DNA of 64,000 bases, from UHGV virus genome UHGV-0247568; one strand, written 5' to 3'. The position numbers and the translations under genes were made by a program. Source of the stretch: a virus. The notes beneath the pieces were generated by a model. It was not told where the DNA came from. It made no database searches and saw only the letters and a list, made by a program, of their open reading frames with translations. Below, piece after piece: positions 20,460-31,919 of this stretch; within the stretch, counting starts at the first letter, position 1; every line of letters begins with the position of its first letter.

Positions 20460-21101
20460 TTAACCACCAATTGTGGTGGTAGTTGTTGTCGTAGTTGCTT
20501 TAGTGGTTGTTGTAGTTGTCACAGGATCAGTTGTAGTTGCTCCGTAAACTTTCTCAAACCATGCTTTAATAACTTCTTTATCAGCACCTGGTGCATCCTC
20601 GTTAACTGAAGCTCTCCAATCACCATTGAACACAGTTGGTAAGAATGTACCAGTAATTGTTGTAGTTTGGAACGTGATAGAATCTTCTTTTGTTTGGTAA
20701 GAATCTTCACCCACACCAAATGAACCTTTATACAATACTACGTATTTGTAAGTTCCATTTGATTTTAAAGAACGGAAAGCTAATGCTACACGAGGAGCAA
20801 CTTTATTAACGTTGTCGTGTACTACACCTTTTTCGTCAATTTCGATACCCATTAAACGAGCAACAACTTCGTCTTTAATGTCTGCTGTTTCTAATTCAAC
20901 TTCAATTGAGCTGATTGTTTGGTTAGAAATTAGAGCAATATCGTCCGCATAGAATGCGTCATCTGATGTTGACGGTGAAATTGAAGCACTAACAGCAGGA
21001 GCGATCTTAAACGGTGCTCCATATGCTAAATTCCCTTTTTCGTCATTTTTTAATTCGAATGCATATAAGTCACTCAAACCAATACGTACTGTATCTTCCA
21101 T
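20460..21101 (-). CDS. major tail protein with C-terminal poly-Thr tail (…TTTDPVTTTTTTKATTTTTTTTIGG*)
   Basis: 213-aa protein upstream of the chaperones. The last 25 codons are almost all ACN Thr codons, in frame. Confidence 0.7.
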   Translation of the reverse strand: MEDTVRIGLSDLYAFELKNDEKGNLAYGAPFKIAPAVSASISPSTSDDAFYADDIALISNQTISSIEVELETADIKDEVVARLMGIEIDEKGVVHDNVNKVAPRVALAFRSLKSNGTYKYVVLYKGSFGVGEDSYQTKEDSITFQTTTITGTFLPTVFNGDWRASVNEDAPGADKEVIKAWFEKVYGATTTDPVTTTTTTKATTTTTTTTIGG

Positions 21102-21506: not shown

Positions 21507-21965
21507 CTATAACCCCATTGCGGCAAATACTATATCCGAGATAACTTTCGTTGCTTGGTCTTGACCTTTCTCATATGCTGGTTGCATATAAGGTTTTCCA
21601 GTAACATAACCAACAGTTTTGCCTGATTTTGTAACGATAAAGTGGCCACCTTCTAAAATGTGACCCCAATAAACACCATTTCGGTACTTACCTCGTCCCA
21701 AGTAAGTACCGACTGAGACGTATGGTTGCCCTGTCTCGTCCATTTTAACTGGTGAAATATCAATAGCATCTCTTAAATGCTTACTGCTATTTCGATTAGA
21801 GTATGGCACTCCTGAAATTGCAAGTTTCTTAAAAACTTTTGCTCCTTCTTTAAGTGCCTTTTTTGCAGATTTTTCACCTTTATCTCCCATTGTCATTAAT
21901 TCTTTGAATAATTCTTCGAAACCTTCAGCTTTTACATAGAAATTTCCATTAGCCATTTTTATCAC
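21507..21965 (-). CDS. HK97 gp10-like tail component
   Basis: 152-aa ORF with the G+Y-rich signature GTYLGRGKYRNGVYWGHILEGGHF, typical of the HK97 gp10 family. Confidence 0.5.
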   Translation of the reverse strand: MIKMANGNFYVKAEGFEELFKELMTMGDKGEKSAKKALKEGAKVFKKLAISGVPYSNRNSSKHLRDAIDISPVKMDETGQPYVSVGTYLGRGKYRNGVYWGHILEGGHFIVTKSGKTVGYVTGKPYMQPAYEKGQDQATKVISDIVFAAMGL

Positions 21966-22329
21966 CTGTAGAGGTAATATTTCCTCTACTGTTTTCAGTT
22001 GATGCTGTTAAAATAAGATATTCATTTCTAAAGTTTGGATTAAAAATTCCATTGATTTGATATTCTTTTTTATTATAACGAACCAACATTGCTTTTGTAA
22101 TTCCTTCACGATAATAAATTTTAAAAGTTACTCGTTCAACTGTTACTGTTTCTTTTCCATCATTAATTTCAACGGGTTCTTCTGAATTTTTGATTTGAGC
22201 CCAAGGTCTTGCAAAAGGTACAAACACTTGTTGTTGAAAACCTTCGTCATCAGTTACCCACTTAATATTCCCAAGTTCGATCCTTCGATCTAATAATCCA
22301 CTTTGTGTCATAAGTAATAACCTCCGCAA
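21949..22329 (-). CDS. head closure / head-tail adaptor protein
   Basis: 126-aa ORF between the connector and the gp10-like gene. Confidence 0.45.
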   Translation of the reverse strand: MRRLLLMTQSGLLDRRIELGNIKWVTDDEGFQQQVFVPFARPWAQIKNSEEPVEINDGKETVTVERVTFKIYYREGITKAMLVRYNKKEYQINGIFNPNFRNEYLILTASTENSRGNITSTGDKNG

Positions 22330-22712
22330 CCTATATCGCTAAAACCAGAATCTGCTAGAGTTACTTGCCAATTACGATGCATATCTAAAATTCCTTCAAA
22401 AACATAAGGCAATTCTTGTTTTGAAATATCTTCAGTTAAAACTCCACGATTTTTATACCAATGTTCAGAAATTGCTAATGTTGCAATCGTAATTTCTGAT
22501 GGAATATCTCCATCAACCCACTCATTGAACTTCCATCCAAGATAGGTTTGTACAAATGATTTTGCGGCAGCTAAAATTGTTCCAATAAATCGATCATTTT
22601 CTGGGTCTTCAAAATCGATTCTCATATAATTTTTTAAGTCGTCGACTGTTAAATCTTGAGGCGATGTTGTAGCTACCAAAACTTCTAACTCATTTTTTTC
22701 ACTATTTTCCAT
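22308..22712 (-). CDS. gp6-like head-tail connector (DNA packaging) protein
   Basis: 134 aa. The N-terminal LTVDDLKNYMRIDFEDPENDRFIGTILAAAKSFVQTYLG is typical of Phage_connect_1. Confidence 0.55.
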   Translation of the reverse strand: MENSEKNELEVLVATTSPQDLTVDDLKNYMRIDFEDPENDRFIGTILAAAKSFVQTYLGWKFNEWVDGDIPSEITIATLAISEHWYKNRGVLTEDISKQELPYVFEGILDMHRNWQVTLADSGFSDIGCGGYYL

Positions 22713-22868: not shown

Positions 22869-23756
22869 TTATTTTTTAACTTTTTTAATCGCTTGGATGT
22901 ACTTATATGAGCAAAAATCTTTAGAAATATGTGAAAAATCATCAAAAAATGGTGTATTTTTAACATATTTTCCTTTAAAAAATAGCTCTTTTCTGTCCTC
23001 AGTGACTCCTGCGTTGTGAAAAATCTTATATTTTTCCCAATTTTCAATTGGATCTGTTGCCCAATTGAAGATAAAATCATCAGAAGTTAGCGGTTTATAA
23101 TTAAATAGAACCATATTCCAGCACTGAGACCACATTTCTGCTGTCCAAATTTGTAAATTTGTATCAATTGTTGCAAAATAACGCCAGAGTTTATTAGAAT
23201 CGTGATAAACTTTTTCCCAGAACTCTTTTTTTGGCTTATTTACTAAAACTTGTGCTCCTAGGTGCAGTCCTAGGTGCTCGTTCAGCTGATCTTCTGATAT
23301 TCCTATAATGTCTAACATTTTATTTGCAATATGAGGACCATTTTCGCAACCTTTTATATAATCTAAAGAAAGATAACCAGAACAATCTGAACCGATCCAT
23401 TCATTATCTTTTAATTGAGGAATATTTGGCATTTCTCTAAAGATAACATCAGAATCAATATAAAGAAATTGTTCTTTTTCCATTTCTGGATTCTCTTCTA
23501 AAAATTTCCACCATAAATATGGTCGAATAGAAGAGATATATCCTTTATATTCTCTATTATCTTCATATCGATAAATAGAAATGTGAGGATATTTTTGTTT
23601 TAACCTTTCAGAAATTGAAGGGTCAAAACTAGCAAATAATACATAAATATCTTTAATATTATGCTCTAATAAATTTGTGATTGCAACTTCTAATTCCCAT
23701 TCGAAACGAACTATTTCTGGTTGGGCAAATAATACTTTCATTTTTCTAGTTCTCAC
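22869..23756 (-). CDS. GT-A fold (GT8-like) nucleotide-sugar glycosyltransferase embedded in the head-to-tail gene block
   Basis: Hydrophobic-hydrophobic DxD motif FLYIDSDVIF. Upstream YISSIRPYLWWKFL resembles the GT8 'ayaRlfiPellp' motif, and downstream GAQVLVNKPKKEFW resembles the GT8 'NsGVllinl..wr' motif. Good RBS aaaggtgag. Confidence 0.5.
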   Translation of the reverse strand: MRTRKMKVLFAQPEIVRFEWELEVAITNLLEHNIKDIYVLFASFDPSISERLKQKYPHISIYRYEDNREYKGYISSIRPYLWWKFLEENPEMEKEQFLYIDSDVIFREMPNIPQLKDNEWIGSDCSGYLSLDYIKGCENGPHIANKMLDIIGISEDQLNEHLGLHLGAQVLVNKPKKEFWEKVYHDSNKLWRYFATIDTNLQIWTAEMWSQCWNMVLFNYKPLTSDDFIFNWATDPIENWEKYKIFHNAGVTEDRKELFFKGKYVKNTPFFDDFSHISKDFCSYKYIQAIKKVKK

Positions 23757-23924
23757 CTTTCAATTTCTAATTTTAACAATAAAAGTGAGCAATATTCTAA
23801 ATTAACGACCCGTTGCTCTCGGAGTCTACCATAAATATATATGTAAATTGAAGATGGACGAATTAGCATCCACCTTCAATAGTGAAAAATTATGTTTCAT
23901 ACTCAACCTACCAGGACGCCAACA

Positions 23925-24064
23925 CTACCCACCGGGGGTGACGGTGGTAGTTGTTGTAGTCGTCGGTTTAACCGTTGTCGTCGTCGTAGTTGTTGAAGTC
24001 GACGTCGTTGTAGTGGTTGTTGGTTTGACAGTAGTTGTCGTTGTTGTAGTAGGCTGAGTTGTTA
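23925..24064 (-). other. poly-Thr coding frame (…KVTTQPTTTTTTTVKPTTTTTTSTSTTTTTTTVKPTTTTTTTVTPGG*) in the -1 frame right after the capsid stop; candidate -1 frameshift extension of the capsid protein
   Basis: The frame opens only 9 codons before the capsid stop and has no ATG/GTG/TTG. The junction reads gca-aca-gcA-AAG-TAA, an A_AAG slip site next to a stop. The encoded sequence closely resembles the in-frame tail of the major tail protein. Confidence 0.35.
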
Positions 24065-25264
24065 CTTTGCTGTTGCCACTACTAAAGCGTTAGGATTGTA
24101 AACTTCTCCATCCATGTAAGTGTCTAAGATAGATAATTGTCCACCAGCTAAAGCTTGTGTTGTATCTTGTGTTACGTTAATCAAGTTCATACCTTTTTTG
24201 ATCAACATACCATAACCAGCTTGGAAGTTACCAAATACAATTTTATCTGCATTTTCGCCAGTTAAAACATCAGATACGTGTACTGGGCATCCAAATAGAG
24301 AATATCCAGGTTTACCGTCAACTAATCCACGGAAGATTAAGAATGTTCCGTCACCGTCTTTTAATTGCATAACTTTGTTGAACATTGGACGGCTCATTAC
24401 CCACATAGAACCTTCTAAATATCCTGGGTTTAAAGTACCGTAAATGTTCAATAAGTCTGGCACATCGATAGCTTTAGCGACATCAAGAGCTAAAACATTT
24501 TTATCGCCAATTACTGGACGGAATGCTTCGTCTTCGTTTTCGCCATCTTTAGGTCCAACTAAGATTCCACGTTCAATTGTTTTAGCAACAGAACGAGCTA
24601 AGCGACCTTGAGCATAACTAACAATATCAACACCAGAATCGTTGATCAATTGTTGAGTTAATTGAATTGCTGCACCAACACGTTTTTGGTTAAGTGTTAC
24701 TGCTTTCAATTTAGGTTGTAATTTGTTTGCGTCTACAGTTTCACCGATAAAACCTTCGTCAAAGTTACCGTCTTCACGAGCGATTTTCAAATTACCAGTT
24801 ACAGATGTGAATTTACGAGCTGCTTCAAACACAGGTGAAGTTTCGCCTAATAATTCAACAATTTCATTGTGAATTTGTGTAGGTACTAAAAATTCTCCTA
24901 ATGGATTTGCGTTGTTCGCAGTTGTATTTTCACTGTTAGAGTAAGCAATATCACGTAATTCTTCCCCTTCACGACGACGTAAGAATTGTTCCATGCCGCG
25001 TAATTCGACTTCTTTTGTAATTTCTTTTTCCATCTTTGTTTCTCCTCCGATTGTTTCGACATCTGCATCAGCTAATGAACGAACTTCTTTAATTTGTTTG
25101 ATAGACGCATCTAAATCTGCGACTTCGCTTTTAATTTCTGAAATACGACTTAATTCACTTTCATCAAAAGCACGAGTTTCTGCTTCAACTTTATCAGCAA
25201 CTTCGCTCATTTCTTGAACTAATGCGTTGCGTTTTTCCAACATTGCTTTTAAATTAATTTCCAT
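24062..25264 (-). CDS. major capsid protein (HK97 family)
   Basis: 400-aa ORF directly after the protease/scaffold gene, with the length and character of HK97-fold capsid proteins. Confidence 0.8.
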   Translation of the reverse strand: MEINLKAMLEKRNALVQEMSEVADKVEAETRAFDESELSRISEIKSEVADLDASIKQIKEVRSLADADVETIGGETKMEKEITKEVELRGMEQFLRRREGEELRDIAYSNSENTTANNANPLGEFLVPTQIHNEIVELLGETSPVFEAARKFTSVTGNLKIAREDGNFDEGFIGETVDANKLQPKLKAVTLNQKRVGAAIQLTQQLINDSGVDIVSYAQGRLARSVAKTIERGILVGPKDGENEDEAFRPVIGDKNVLALDVAKAIDVPDLLNIYGTLNPGYLEGSMWVMSRPMFNKVMQLKDGDGTFLIFRGLVDGKPGYSLFGCPVHVSDVLTGENADKIVFGNFQAGYGMLIKKGMNLINVTQDTTQALAGGQLSILDTYMDGEVYNPNALVVATAK

Positions 25265-26432
25265 TCTCTGGAACCTCCATAATTTTATTATTTTCTAACC
25301 AAGCTCTAACTTCTGCTTGTACATCAGGCTTTTTCGTGGTTGTTGTCGTTGTTTCTGGCTCAGCTGCTGTTTCCGCTTTACCTTCTTCAACTTTCGTTTC
25401 GTCAACTGGTGTTTCTTCCGCTTTTTGTTCAGTTTCGTCAACACGAGTTTCTTCACTCGGTTCTTCAACTTTAGCCTCAGCTTTAGGCTCACCATTTTCG
25501 TCCTCAACAACGGCTTTTGTACCGTCTTCAGTTTTTTCAACTTTAGCTTTTTCTTCAGTAACAGGTTCTTCAACCTTTTCTTCAGTTACTTTTTCTTCAA
25601 CAGTTGGTGTTGGTTCAGTTGGTTGGGCTGGTGCTGCAGCAGCTGCTGTGGGGTCCATTGGTGGAACTTGTGCGCTTGCAACTTGTGAAACTTGTTCCAT
25701 TACCTGTTTCGCCATTTCCAATCCATCAAATGCGGACTTATCTACAATTTCTTGTAATAATTTATTTGTGTCAGCTTGATTCATTGCTAAAGTTGAAATA
25801 GCATCATACAACATTTTTGGTGTTACTTCCATATTGTCTGTATTCAAACCATTTCCTCCTATAAGAGCTCTAAACTCCAAATCATTCGGAATTTCAACGT
25901 CAGCTACTTCCATACCACGTGCCTCCAATAAAGTAGTTGGATATGCGGGAGTTTTTAGTGCTGAAACTTCAAATAGTTCAATTTCACTAATAGTTCGAAG
26001 TGGCATTCCGTCTGCAGCTAAAGACCAATCTTCATTTAATACTTTCATACCAAAAGAAAGACCTTTAATAATTCCGTCTTTTACTAATACATATAAGTCT
26101 CGTCCGTAACTTGTTGGAGACACAGTTGCTTCAAAATAGAGGCCAACTTCGTCTTCTTCCAATTTTAACGAGCCATTTGCAGTAGATGCTAAAATCTTTT
26201 TAGTATCATGATCGGCAAGTAAATCGATACTTTCTTTTAAGCGTTTTGCTTTTGCAATTGCATTTCTGAAAGTTCCTGGAGCAATTACTTCTCTCCATTT
26301 TTTCTTACCTTCTTTACCAAGGATGTGACTAGATGCGTCAGTTGCTACATATCCTTGCAATTTCATTTCTTTCGACTCTTCATCAACATCATTGATGTTC
26401 AAATCAAGAGCACGAACTTCAATTCCATCCAC
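25254..26432 (-). CDS. prohead protease (HK97 gp4-like) fused to an acidic, scaffold-like low-complexity C-terminal region
   Basis: The N-terminal 180 aa resemble HK97-family prohead proteases. The C-terminal 200 aa are E/K/T/P-rich and contain a TTTTTT run (…ETTTTTTKKPD…). Confidence 0.65.
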   Translation of the reverse strand: MDGIEVRALDLNINDVDEESKEMKLQGYVATDASSHILGKEGKKKWREVIAPGTFRNAIAKAKRLKESIDLLADHDTKKILASTANGSLKLEEDEVGLYFEATVSPTSYGRDLYVLVKDGIIKGLSFGMKVLNEDWSLAADGMPLRTISEIELFEVSALKTPAYPTTLLEARGMEVADVEIPNDLEFRALIGGNGLNTDNMEVTPKMLYDAISTLAMNQADTNKLLQEIVDKSAFDGLEMAKQVMEQVSQVASAQVPPMDPTAAAAAPAQPTEPTPTVEEKVTEEKVEEPVTEEKAKVEKTEDGTKAVVEDENGEPKAEAKVEEPSEETRVDETEQKAEETPVDETKVEEGKAETAAEPETTTTTTKKPDVQAEVRAWLENNKIMEVPENGN

Positions 26433-30266: not shown

Positions 30267-30759
30267 CTATGATTTCAATGCGGCTAACAGCGGATCTTCT
30301 TCCTCTTCTTTTGCCTCGACTTTAAGTTGGCTTAAACTAGCCCTTGCTGAAGGAGATAATCCAAGTTGTCCACACAAAGCTCTATATTGTGTTAAATATG
30401 CTAATTTCGTTTTTACCATTGGATGTTCTTTTGGAATTGTATTTCCAAACTTATCATAAGAATCATATTTGATTCCTTCACGAGCTAAAATTTCATCAGC
30501 TTGTTTCATTTTTGAAAGACAATCAGCTGTTTGTGATAATAACGGTACGTCTAAATTAGACAAAAATCCTGATTCGCTGAATTCATTAATTAGAAATTGA
30601 TAATATTCTTGGGCATAATCGTCTATATCGTCTGGAACAATCCACACTAAATCGTCATTTCCTGCCATTTCTTTTTCAACTTCTGCTCGTTCGTTTAAAT
30701 CTTCTTTTGTTTCACTTTTACCAGCTTTAACTGTTGCTGGTTTTCTAGGGTCGTGCCAT
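30267..30759 (-). CDS. terS: terminase small subunit, P27 family. As sequenced, a +1 shift at the CCC run (plus-strand GGG 30748-30750) is needed to join the start ATG-GCA-CGA-CCC to the main frame
   Basis: The body ends SNLDVPLL…YRALCGQLGLSPSARASL, the P27-family C-terminal signature. The main frame continues upstream of the annotated Met (30668) as …HDPRKPATVKAGKSETKEDLNERAEVEKE, matching the basic family N-terminus, but it has no start codon. An ATG at 30759-30757 (TAATG overlap with the GIY-YIG stop) reads MARP* in the +1 frame. Removing one C gives MARPRKPATVKAG…, a 164-aa typical TerS. Confidence 0.6.
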
Positions 30760-31496
30760 TACAGCATCACCACCTTGCTTAAATATTCTTCTTTTGTAAT
30801 TGTTTCAAAAATCATATCTTTATAAAACTTTTTAGATAGTCCATATTTTACATTTATGTCGCTATATTTCTTTTTAAAATCATTTCTAGAGCTAAAGTAT
30901 TCGACTCTTCCATCTTTAAAAGATACTTTAAGCGGAATTTTACATTTGTTTTTTAAATATAACTCGGTGTTATCTATGATAGTTTCTTTCTTCATTCCTT
31001 TATTCCAAGGAATATTACCTTTCAAACTATCACTTATTTTGGATCGAGTTTCTTCTGAATGATTTTTACCAAGCATTGGGTGTATTCCTTTTTCTCCAGA
31101 TTTATACATAGGATTATTCGGACCAACACCAATGTTCTTTTCTTTTCGTGTTTTAATCATTCTATTATAAATGTCTTTCTTTTCAGAATCTGGAAGGAAC
31201 TTAATTAAATATCCACCTTCTCCTCCTGCAGCTACATTATAAGAATTTTCTCTATATTTATTTATAAAGAAAATTTCTTGAGCGTTTAATTCTTCTTCAG
31301 AGAAGCACCAACATATAATTTCATTTTTAAAGTTGTTTATTCCATATTTTTTAATAGCGTGTTTTAAGATCTTTCCGCTACCAAAATATTTTTCATCAAT
31401 ATTTTTAGTTTCTCTTTTGTGTTTTCCAATATATACTTTATTATTAATTAAGTTGGTGGTTTTATAGATATAACCAAATGGATTTGCCATATTCAT
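30759..31496 (-). CDS. GIY-YIG homing endonuclease (I-TevI/Seg-like, with NUMOD3-type DNA-binding repeats)
   Basis: N-terminal GYIYKTTNLINNKVYIGKH…YFGSG GIY-YIG motif. Repeated NPMYKSGEKGIHPMLGKNHSEETRSKIS NUMOD3-like motifs. Confidence 0.75.
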   Translation of the reverse strand: MNMANPFGYIYKTTNLINNKVYIGKHKRETKNIDEKYFGSGKILKHAIKKYGINNFKNEIICWCFSEEELNAQEIFFINKYRENSYNVAAGGEGGYLIKFLPDSEKKDIYNRMIKTRKEKNIGVGPNNPMYKSGEKGIHPMLGKNHSEETRSKISDSLKGNIPWNKGMKKETIIDNTELYLKNKCKIPLKVSFKDGRVEYFSSRNDFKKKYSDINVKYGLSKKFYKDMIFETITKEEYLSKVVML

Positions 31497-31502
31497 TCCT
31501 CC

Positions 31503-31919
31503 TTATAAATTAAACGAATCGTCAACTGGTGGCTCCCAATCAAAATCGATACCATTTAATCCTAGTTGAATATTGCAAGTCTTACATAAAGTTATAATAT
31601 TATCTTCTTCAAATGTTAATTCCGGATAATAAATACGTGGCTTAATGTGGTGAACTTGTAATTGATCACCATTAATAATGTTGTATTTAATATAGCAACG
31701 TTGGCAAATATGATTATCTCTTGCAATAATTCTTAATCTTAATTTTCTCCATCTTCGAGATTCTAATGGTTTTAAAGTTTCAATATTTTTTCTTCTATAT
31801 TCTCGACGTCGAGCATTTGACTCTTGTCTTGCTTTTTCTTTTCCAGGACAATTATGTTTAGAATCTGCTATTTTGCCGCAATATCGACAGATCGTTTTTC
31901 TCTCCGGCATTTTCAGCAA
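31503..31919 (-). CDS. HNH endonuclease (terminase-associated type)
   Basis: HNH motif NHICQRC…QVHHIKP…NIITLCKTCN with zinc-ligand Cys pairs. Sits upstream of terS, as in cos-type HNH phages. Confidence 0.75.
   Translation of the reverse strand: MLKMPERKTICRYCGKIADSKHNCPGKEKARQESNARRREYRRKNIETLKPLESRRWRKLRLRIIARDNHICQRCYIKYNIINGDQLQVHHIKPRIYYPELTFEEDNIITLCKTCNIQLGLNGIDFDWEPPVDDSFNL

Follow-up and report, generated by a model that had tools for sequence, protein, structure and literature searches.

A GT8-Like Glycosyltransferase Gene Paired with Poly-Thr Protein Tails Suggests a Candidate Virion O-Glycosylation Module in an Enterococcus Siphophage

The Locus and Its Poly-Thr Tails

We analyzed a stretch of 64,000 nucleotides (the window) from the UHGV virus genome UHGV-0247568. 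The element under study is an open reading frame (ORF) at 22869..23756 on the minus strand, which encodes a putative glycosyltransferase (GT), together with the poly-Thr tails of structural proteins encoded close to it. The features on which the argument is built are listed below.

22869..23756 (-): glycosyltransferase gene (PHROG 4417 family), GT-A fold, predicted to be retaining and GT8/GT24-like, DxD motif D101-S-D103
20460..21101 (-): major tail protein gene, phi13/phrog_88 type (phrog_88, E = 6e-53; PF04630)
20460..20540 (-): poly-Thr tail of the major tail protein, ATTTDPVTTTTTTKATTTTTTTTIGG plus stop, from the translation
24062..25264 (-): major capsid protein gene, HK97 fold (PF05065, E = 6e-42; phrog_10)
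24062..24068 (-): candidate −1 slip site A_AAG_UAA, with the Lys codon AAG at 24065-24067 and −1 re-pairing on AAA at 24066-24068
23925..24065 (-): −1-frame capsid extension VTTQPTTTTTTTVKPTTTTTTSTSTTTTTTTVKPTTTTTTTVTPGG, then TAG; 46 codons, mostly Thr
23848..23879 (-): 14-bp perfect hairpin UUGAAGGUGGAUGC-loop-GUCCAUCUUCAA, then the U-rich tract UUUACAUAUAUAUUUAU, from RNA folding
25254..26432 (-): prohead protease/scaffold gene (PF04586, E = 3e-37), C-terminal half acidic and proline-rich
~25335-25352 (-): TTTTTT run of the protease/scaffold, ...PETTTTTTKKPD..., 26 residues before the protein end
Thr-tail peptide sequence: TTTTTTKATTTTTTTTIGG

The product of the 295-residue ORF shares 97.6% identity with a hypothetical protein of Enterococcus phage nattely and 93% with the VPE25 protein named 'prophage pi2 protein 34'. 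The window is therefore considered to be part of an 86-kb lytic Enterococcus siphophage (Andrewesvirinae); judged by its sequence, this phage is VPE25/nattely-like. Because the GTG at 23756 falls within the Shine-Dalgarno sequence AAAGGTGAG, the gene is likely to start at the ATG at 23741, with AAAGGTGAG in front of it as ribosome-binding site and a product of 290 residues. This start agrees with the 873-nt coding sequence annotated in nattely and with homologues that align from residue 5-6. Residue numbers given here (D101, H247 and others) follow the 295-residue numbering.

A scan of the window in all six frames gave stretches of at least five consecutive Thr at three places only, namely the C-terminus of the major tail protein, the −1-frame extension of the capsid and the C-terminal part of the protease/scaffold. 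The first-pass annotation had described an ORF with the motif FLYIDSDVIF and three poly-Thr structural features near it, and both descriptions are borne out by the translations and the six-frame scan. The Thr codons are mixed (ACA/ACT/ACG/ACC), so the runs are not a DNA microsatellite or other simple repeat. The major tail protein ends with ...VYGATTTDPVTTTTTTKATTTTTTTTIGG, and its Thr tail is appended past the end of the conserved fold (...WFEKVYG). Whether the run in the protease/scaffold is part of the same system is uncertain: a longer T-rich stretch occupies the equivalent place in the protease of Staphylococcus phage SA2, and phage 9183 has no such stretch.

Probable Recoding at the End of the Capsid Gene

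The 0-frame product of the capsid gene ends with ...VVATAK, and its stop codon TAA lies at 24062-24064. The 0 frame reads GCA AAG TAA at this point; one base back, the reading is AAA GTA ACA ACT... This −1 frame is open, has no start codon of its own and is absent from the ORF list. Of the 5 substitutions that separate the extension from that of nattely, 4 are synonymous when read in the −1 frame, and comparison with vipetofem showed indels of 9 and 3 nt, that is, multiples of three. The capsid stops of nattely, vipetofem and two further loci with distant capsids, L077 and L080, share the context C-AAA-G/A-TAA-C and a −1 frame reading K-V/I-TTTT; the slip site is A_AAG_UAA in the first three and A_AAA_UAA in L080. 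From the conserved slip context and the extension frame, a programmed −1 slip is therefore the likely route to the extended capsid protein. The tRNA-Lys would slip back by one base on A_AAG while the stop codon is in the A site, and a fraction of the capsid subunits would in this way receive a Thr thread.

Comparable arrangements were observed in other phages. In phage 9183 (L221, 5790-5900), the canonical heptamer C_CCA_AAA stands two codons before the capsid stop and leads into a Thr-rich −1 frame. The tail protein of Staphylococcus SA2 ends with TTTTTTTTP and the stop codon, at CCC TAA, and its +1 frame runs for about 70 more codons, of which the first 50 or so are mostly Ser/Thr. This +1 Thr-rich frame of about 90 residues (L215, 11640-11930) overlaps the end of the major tail gene and has been annotated as a separate hypothetical protein. 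In Lactococcus bIL285 (L216, 11940-11995), NDKTTTTTTRHD stands in frame behind the capsid stop TAA and matches the ending of the tail protein of this phage. The arrangement points either to read-through or to a recent nonsense mutation.

C-terminally extended subunits are reportedly produced by a −1 frameshift at C_CCA_AAA in Lactobacillus phage A2 (gp5A/5B), by a +1 frameshift at CCC_UGA in Listeria phage PSA, and in T7 (10A/10B). Our cases resemble these in that a slip beside the stop of a capsid or tail gene would give a minor, longer subunit; the A2 heptamer itself is present in 9183, and SA2 has CCC_UAA with a +1 Thr-rich frame. However, the site in the window is shorter (A_AAG_UAA), the extension is a poly-Thr thread and not a folded domain, and the frameshift is predicted from sequence.

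Between the capsid extension and the GT gene lies the hairpin at 23848-23879. The fold of 23760-24075 on the minus strand has z = −5.2 relative to shuffled sequences, and the hairpin is present in both the minimum free energy and the centroid structures; it was missed by a simple scan for terminators. At the corresponding place, phage 9183 carries another hairpin, with ATTTACATATA behind it. Judging by its predicted fold, the element looks like a terminator or attenuator, and it may lower read-through into the GT gene.

Association between the Glycosyltransferase and Poly-Thr Tails

We searched IMG/VR with a profile of the GT and obtained at least 591 loci among 2.9 million contigs, of which the best 80 were examined. 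At each of the 80 loci, at least one open frame on the GT strand contains a stretch of five or more consecutive Thr, and no stretch of this length was found on the opposite strand of these loci. The runs lie at the very ends of their frames: 151 of the 153 Thr-run frames end at most 14 residues before the stop, and 132 within 2-3 residues of it. The GT gene starts less than 200 nt past the end of a Thr-tailed gene at 77 of the 80 loci. Thr-tailed major head proteins belong to four unrelated PHROG families (phrog_840, 29, 544 and 10), and Thr-tailed major tail proteins to three (phrog_238, 88 and 14018/341).

Both a capsid-sized and a tail-protein-sized ORF are Thr-tailed in 59 loci, and an identical ending is common to the two in 24 of them. 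These shared short endings may be a recognition element, or the outcome of exchange between the two tails. At the Lactobacillus/Lacticaseibacillus loci (including L008-L064), the tails end 2-3 residues past the Thr run, very often with S-H-A, S-H-V or S-H-G; the residues after the run are RHD or HHD in Lactococcus and xGG in the window.

A tblastn search of 50,697 INPHARED phage records gave 77 matches to the GT, and the hosts of the matching phages are Enterococcus, Staphylococcus, Lactococcus, Lactobacillus, Clostridium and Chryseobacterium. The pairing with Thr tails is also present in phiFL1A, SA2, bIL285, 1706, phiCTP1, Lpa804, MA9V-3 and three Lacticaseibacillus prophages. In Clostridium phiCTP1, the portal, the small head protein and the tail tube are all Thr-tailed. 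Lactobacillus myophage Lpa804 has two small Thr-tailed ORFs directly upstream of the GT. Lactococcus phage 1706 has a Thr-tailed capsid/protease fusion and a Thr-tailed major structural protein, and its putative holin orf3 (L217, 964-1368) ends in the Thr7 tail EVTTTTTTTVKEPE. The first-pass annotation had called the GT a cargo gene inside the head-to-tail block. This description holds. The gene is mobile from one structural module to another, following the capsid gene in the window and bIL285 and the major tail gene in phiFL1A, Staphylococcus SA2, Lactococcus 1706 and Clostridium phiCTP1.

In Chryseobacterium phage MA9V-3 (L220, 17606-20001), Ser/Thr-rich stretches lie inside two proteins encoded just upstream of the GT. 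At the loci outside Firmicutes phages (L087, L134, L169, L181 and MA9V-3), the GT family stands beside proteins of 558-2069 or 250-440 residues, in which the Ser/Thr-rich linkers are internal and are not C-terminal tails. This suggests that the GT family also serves fibre-like or 'hairy' virion proteins.

The association was also examined in reverse. Among 120 random viral loci picked only for a Thr8-coding run, this GT was found in 7. The scan pattern was 8xACN and the set is noisy, with many non-coding frames and giant-virus linkers, so that it serves only as an estimate of enrichment; the GT is far commoner at Thr8 loci than in IMG/VR overall, where its frequency is known as a lower bound (at least 591 loci in 2.9 million contigs).

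Phages That Lack the Glycosyltransferase

Controls were drawn from INPHARED tblastn matches and comprised a tail-protein set (n = 8) and a capsid set (n = 4). The tail-protein set consists of phages that lack the GT and whose major tail protein is 35-40% identical to that of the window (Paenibacillus Harrison and Wanderer, Bacillus PfEFR-4 and 1020A, Streptococcus Javan630, Erysipelothrix phi1605, Clostridium HM T and an Oscillospiraceae phage). A Thr tail is absent from all eight, and their tail proteins terminate at ...W(F/Y)xxVY or shortly beyond it, where the Thr tail of the window begins. The capsid set consists of four Streptococcus prophages without the GT, with syntenic structural modules and capsids 60-69% identical to that of phiFL1A. 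Their capsids have no Thr tail and end with ...EIPEGVVEATIQAAAPGVGG, where phiFL1A has ...EIPEGVVEATISGETTTTTKPTTTTTKPTTTTTTTQG, and the tail proteins differ from that of phiFL1A in the same manner.

Altogether, 84 of 84 GT-positive loci are tailed, compared with 0 of 12 GT-negative ones (Fisher's test, p = 1.6e-15), a p-value that is overstated because many of the GT-positive loci are related. The recurrence of the tails on unrelated capsid and tail families, together with their clean loss in two lineages, is a stronger argument than this p-value. A scan of bacterial genomes with the phrog_238 tail-protein profile gave no negative controls, because three of its four loci are GT-positive and the fourth is cut off upstream. 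A three-sequence alignment of phrog_88 tail proteins was too weak as a search query and was dropped.

These results bear on what the GT acts on. It could be supposed that the enzyme modifies the host envelope (teichoic acid, Epa or another wall polysaccharide), as in serotype conversion, that the Thr tails are unrelated linkers, and that the phage benefits by blocking superinfection or by keeping its progeny off debris. GT8 enzymes such as LgtC and WbbM do use glycolipid or polysaccharide acceptors, and many carriers of the GT family are prophages. Phage enzymes that modify host surface glycans are well known. Such GTs are mentioned in PMC12619734. However, the gene lies within the late structural operons of the strictly lytic phages nattely, VPE25, 9183 and the Staphylococcus 6ec-like phages; it directly follows a Thr-tailed gene in 77 of 80 loci, whatever the structural lineage; and the Thr tails vanish along with the GT in close relatives. 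An action on the envelope leaves this tracking unexplained, and we judge it improbable.

Another reading is a role in DNA modification, in which the GT would glycosylate hypermodified bases of the phage DNA as a protection against restriction, in the manner of T4-type glucosyltransferases and of DNA GTs found more recently in viruses. Lytic phages commonly encode GTs that modify DNA (10.1101/2023.12.21.572611, PMC13326640), and the window has genes for a deoxynucleoside kinase and a nucleoside deoxyribosyltransferase. However, no hydroxymethylase, TET or thymidylate-synthase-like gene was found among the best 25 of the 42 Pfam families matched by the 59 other ORFs of the window. Temperate prophages as small as about 36-40 kb (phiFL1A, bIL285, iLp84) also carry members of the GT family, and in almost all loci the gene is positioned with structural genes, away from those for replication. 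Since this role, too, leaves the association with Thr tails unexplained, we give it hardly any credence. The envelope and the DNA are both rejected as targets, chiefly because the adjacency of GT and Thr tails and their loss together would in either case have no explanation.

Fold, Motifs and Family of the Enzyme

The GT protein was placed by structure comparison only, not by sequence profiles. No Pfam family matched it at E ≤ 1, and PF01501, the GT8 model (Glyco_transf_8), was among the models without a match. A profile of the GT family gave no match at E ≤ 10 against all PDB sequences, and NCBIfam at E ≤ 10 gave lpxB alone (E = 0.18), which is nothing usable. The label 'hypothetical protein with lpxB motif', given in one deposited record, is unsupported at this E-value, as is here the homology to a 'PqqD family peptide modification chaperone' assigned by the depositors of phage 9183 (L221, 6001-6870). 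In PHROGs, the protein has a full-length match to phrog_4417 (E = 1.3e-112; residues 6-294 on profile positions 1-292 of 293), the family of 'prophage pi2 protein 34', whose function is listed as unknown. The GT family comprises 1006 clusters at 50% identity.

An AlphaFold2 model from a 65-sequence alignment was very confident (predicted local distance difference test, 95.9; predicted TM-score, 0.92). It consists of one nucleotide-sugar-binding domain with a Rossmann-like alpha/beta/alpha build, resembling that of solved GT-A enzymes. The D101-S-D103 motif follows strand E96-99 at the end of a central beta strand, and both Asp residues are invariant in the 65 homologues, down to 27% identity. 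H247, G250, Q202, K261 and several aromatic residues are also invariant, and the family has an invariant set of its own (Y73, Y128, Y133, Q202 and M208). Foldseek agrees with the GT-A assignment, the closest structural neighbours being GT8 enzymes; among the BFVD viral models, giant-virus GT8 proteins and a cyanophage glycosyltransferase rank directly after the members of the family itself. GT8 enzymes carry a C-terminal motif of the HxxGxxKPW type, in which the His completes the Mn2+ site, as described for LgtC. H247-N-A-G250 and K261 are invariant here and may correspond to it, but in the sequence their spacing (HxxG...10...K) differs from that motif.

The first-pass annotation had called the protein a GT8-like GT-A enzyme and had proposed profile and Foldseek comparisons with GT8/GT-A families. 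The two kinds of comparison diverge. The fold and the motifs (DxD, Foldseek) support the assignment, and the structural neighbours are GT8/GT-A enzymes, but no curated GT family was matched by sequence profile and, by sequence, the protein is not a member of GT8. As the structural neighbours are, as far as is known, all retaining enzymes, a retaining glycosyltransferase activity can be predicted for the family.

Long members of the family (500-790 residues: P0124, P0134, P0159, P0155 and P0210) are fused to further domains, which include radical-SAM plus SPASM, Glyco_transf_7C and a methyltransferase just below the Pfam cut-off, besides weak GT25 matches. Several other long members have a second domain without a Pfam match. 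The fusion partners suggest glycan building or peptide modification.

The structural neighbours also raise the question of which step the enzyme performs. The Thr tails may be glycosylated in a different manner, in that the host adds the first sugar and the phage GT extends it, or in that the GT works alone and adds one sugar per Thr. GlyE, Skp1 GalT and LARGE1, the nearest protein-acting structural neighbours, use an existing sugar, as far as is known. A single GT was detected in the window, with no second GT or sugar-nucleotide gene in the same Pfam results (best 25 of the 42 families, 59 other ORFs), compared with several GTs in actinophage systems (two putative ones in Maravista, PMC11256854). 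However, the hosts are very diverse and a common host initiating enzyme is not evident. Retaining GT-A enzymes, moreover, can modify Thr, Ser or Tyr directly, and glycogenin is among the structural matches. Clostridial glucosylating toxins are an example of direct protein glycosylation by such enzymes. We consider a different step of this kind unlikely.

Comparison with Known Systems

In mycobacteriophages such as Che8, Corndog and others, phage GTs are reported to place glycans on the C-termini of capsid and tail-tube proteins (Freeman et al., 2023, Cell Host Microbe 31:1216, as cited in PMC12619734 and PMC12691614). The candidate acceptors predicted here are likewise C-terminal on capsid and tail-tube proteins; they are tails of the Ser/Thr type and co-vary with the GT. 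The differences are considerable. The hosts are Firmicutes, plus one Bacteroidota phage, and the GT family is unrelated by sequence, with 0 of the 77 INPHARED records coming from Mycobacterium, Gordonia or Streptomyces phages. The structural operon contains just one GT gene, the candidate acceptors are tails of almost nothing but Thr, and the tail is often supplied by recoding, so that only some subunits bear it. Glycosylation has been reported for the mycobacteriophages, whereas here it is predicted from genes.

Relative to the CAZy GT8/GT24 enzymes (LgtC, glycogenin, GlyE and UGGT), the protein has a sequence identity of 9-17% and no profile match. GlyE belongs to the pathway of the pneumococcal serine-rich-repeat protein. 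A64R of Chlorella virus PBCV-1, a GT-A enzyme that builds the major capsid glycan, is structurally further from the protein than the GT8 enzymes are. PBCV-1 is a eukaryotic giant virus whose capsid glycans are N-linked at atypical sites.

Proposed Mechanism and Its Strength

We consider it likely that the GT and the Thr tails form a phage-encoded O-glycosylation module acting on poly-Thr virion tails, and the virions of these phages are probably sugar-coated. The first-pass annotation had pointed to the Thr tails as acceptors; comparative genomics upholds this suggestion through a very strong association. The fold and catalytic motifs, the Thr tails with their positions, the conserved recoding site and the joint presence or absence of GT and tails are observations; the acceptor role of the tails, the donor sugar, the starting or extending of the glycan and the biological pay-off are predictions.

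The enzyme would be a soluble, metal-dependent (DxD) GT-A enzyme of the retaining type, made late alongside the structural proteins, with a divalent metal bound by D101, D103 and H247. Acting in the cytoplasm, it would take sugar from a nucleotide sugar of the host, probably a UDP-hexose (UDP, uridine diphosphate), and attach it to the Thr hydroxyls of disordered C-terminal tails. Every subunit of the major tail protein would be an acceptor, as would the −1-frameshifted minority of capsid subunits and no others of that protein. Glycosylation could take place before or after assembly, and the outcome would be a head and tail tube bearing flexible, mucin-like O-glycosylated threads. By analogy with actinophages, the pay-off may be a hydrated, mucin-like coat resistant to proteases and antibodies, which is speculation; colloidal stability and adhesion to mucus or cell surfaces could be others.

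Several points weigh against the proposed module. A glycan on these virions is predicted from sequence, and no curated GT family was matched by sequence profile. The GT-positive loci are phylogenetically non-independent, whereby the p-value overstates the evidence. The GT of Lpa804 is located among replication genes, though right after two small Thr-tailed ORFs. A protease/scaffold is normally internal and degraded, so its Thr run misfits a surface decoration, and phage 9183 lacks this run. The nearest protein-acting structural neighbours, such as GlyE, presumably extend glycans in most cases and do not place the first sugar on Ser/Thr; because of this, a phage GT on its own might depend on an enzyme of the host for initiation. 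Finally, a glycoprotein stain of ten other phages, some of them infecting Firmicutes and their GT content unchecked, showed nothing (PMC12894461).

Genomic Setting and Other Features of the Window

The GT gene lies in an HK97-type head-to-tail block of ordinary make-up, at 19.8-31 kb on the minus strand. The order is small terminase, large terminase, portal, protease/scaffold, major capsid, GT ORF, head-tail adaptor and head closure, and the block continues with an HK97-gp10-like protein, the major tail protein, chaperone genes and the tape measure. The Pfam and PHROG matches of these genes confirm the setting between HK97-like capsid and head-tail connector genes that had been described for the GT. 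Positions not yet given are listed below.

22308..22712 (-): head-tail adaptor (PF05135)
21949..22329 (-): head closure protein
30267-30668 (-): small terminase, our placement of one ORF that matches Pfam Terminase_4

Two ORFs at 30759-31496 and 31503-31919 on the minus strand adjoin the terminase genes and were assigned NUMOD3 and HNH Pfam matches from their sequences. Such ORFs are the usual company of cos/pac-site terminases, or of homing elements. The window also encodes deoxynucleoside kinase, nucleoside 2-deoxyribosyltransferase-like proteins, SLOG/LDcluster4 and 'lysine decarboxylase'-type (LOG-like) proteins, a nicotinamide mononucleotide transporter, glutaredoxin, DNA ligase and a DHH phosphoesterase. 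The set for nucleotide and nicotinamide adenine dinucleotide (NAD) salvage is unusually rich for a siphophage, and its genes would lie in the early region, at 32000-64000 of the window on the plus strand.

Novelty and Significance

To our knowledge, virion glycosylation has so far been shown only for phages of Actinobacteria, where it reportedly blunts recognition by antibodies. In full-text searches of the literature, we found no report of poly-Thr tails or virion glycosylation in Firmicutes phages, nor of the pairing of a GT with such tails, in keeping with the first-pass annotation, which had regarded the pairing as new outside actinophages. A proteomics paper on VPE25 treats most VPE25 proteins as uncharacterised.

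If the module is active, it would be common for phages of Enterococcus, Staphylococcus, Lactococcus, Lactobacillus and Clostridium to have glycosylated virions. This would bear on the pharmacokinetics and neutralisation of phages in therapy, on their persistence in mucus and on the control of dairy phages. PHROG 4417, now of 'unknown function', would gain a function, and the poly-Thr ends of capsid and tail genes, together with their short, unannotated, out-of-frame Thr-rich extensions, would be explained. A Thr tail and one GT would also make a compact one-enzyme, one-tag system for the glyco-engineering of phage particles. The prediction is directly testable on phages that have already been cultured (VPE25, nattely, phiFL1A and 1706).

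We further lean, with somewhat less confidence than in the module itself, towards a widespread, hitherto unrecognised virion O-glycosylation system in phages of Firmicutes and beyond (about 1000 protein clusters at 50% identity), in which mucin-like poly-Thr threads on capsid and tail-tube subunits are decorated by a GT8-like family and the number of threads per virion is set by recoding. The recoding would proceed by −1 or +1 frameshifts and possibly by stop-codon read-through. If this is true, glycosylated virions would be common in gut, dairy and skin phages, and these would include therapeutic candidates of the Enterococcus VPE25 and Staphylococcus 6ec types.

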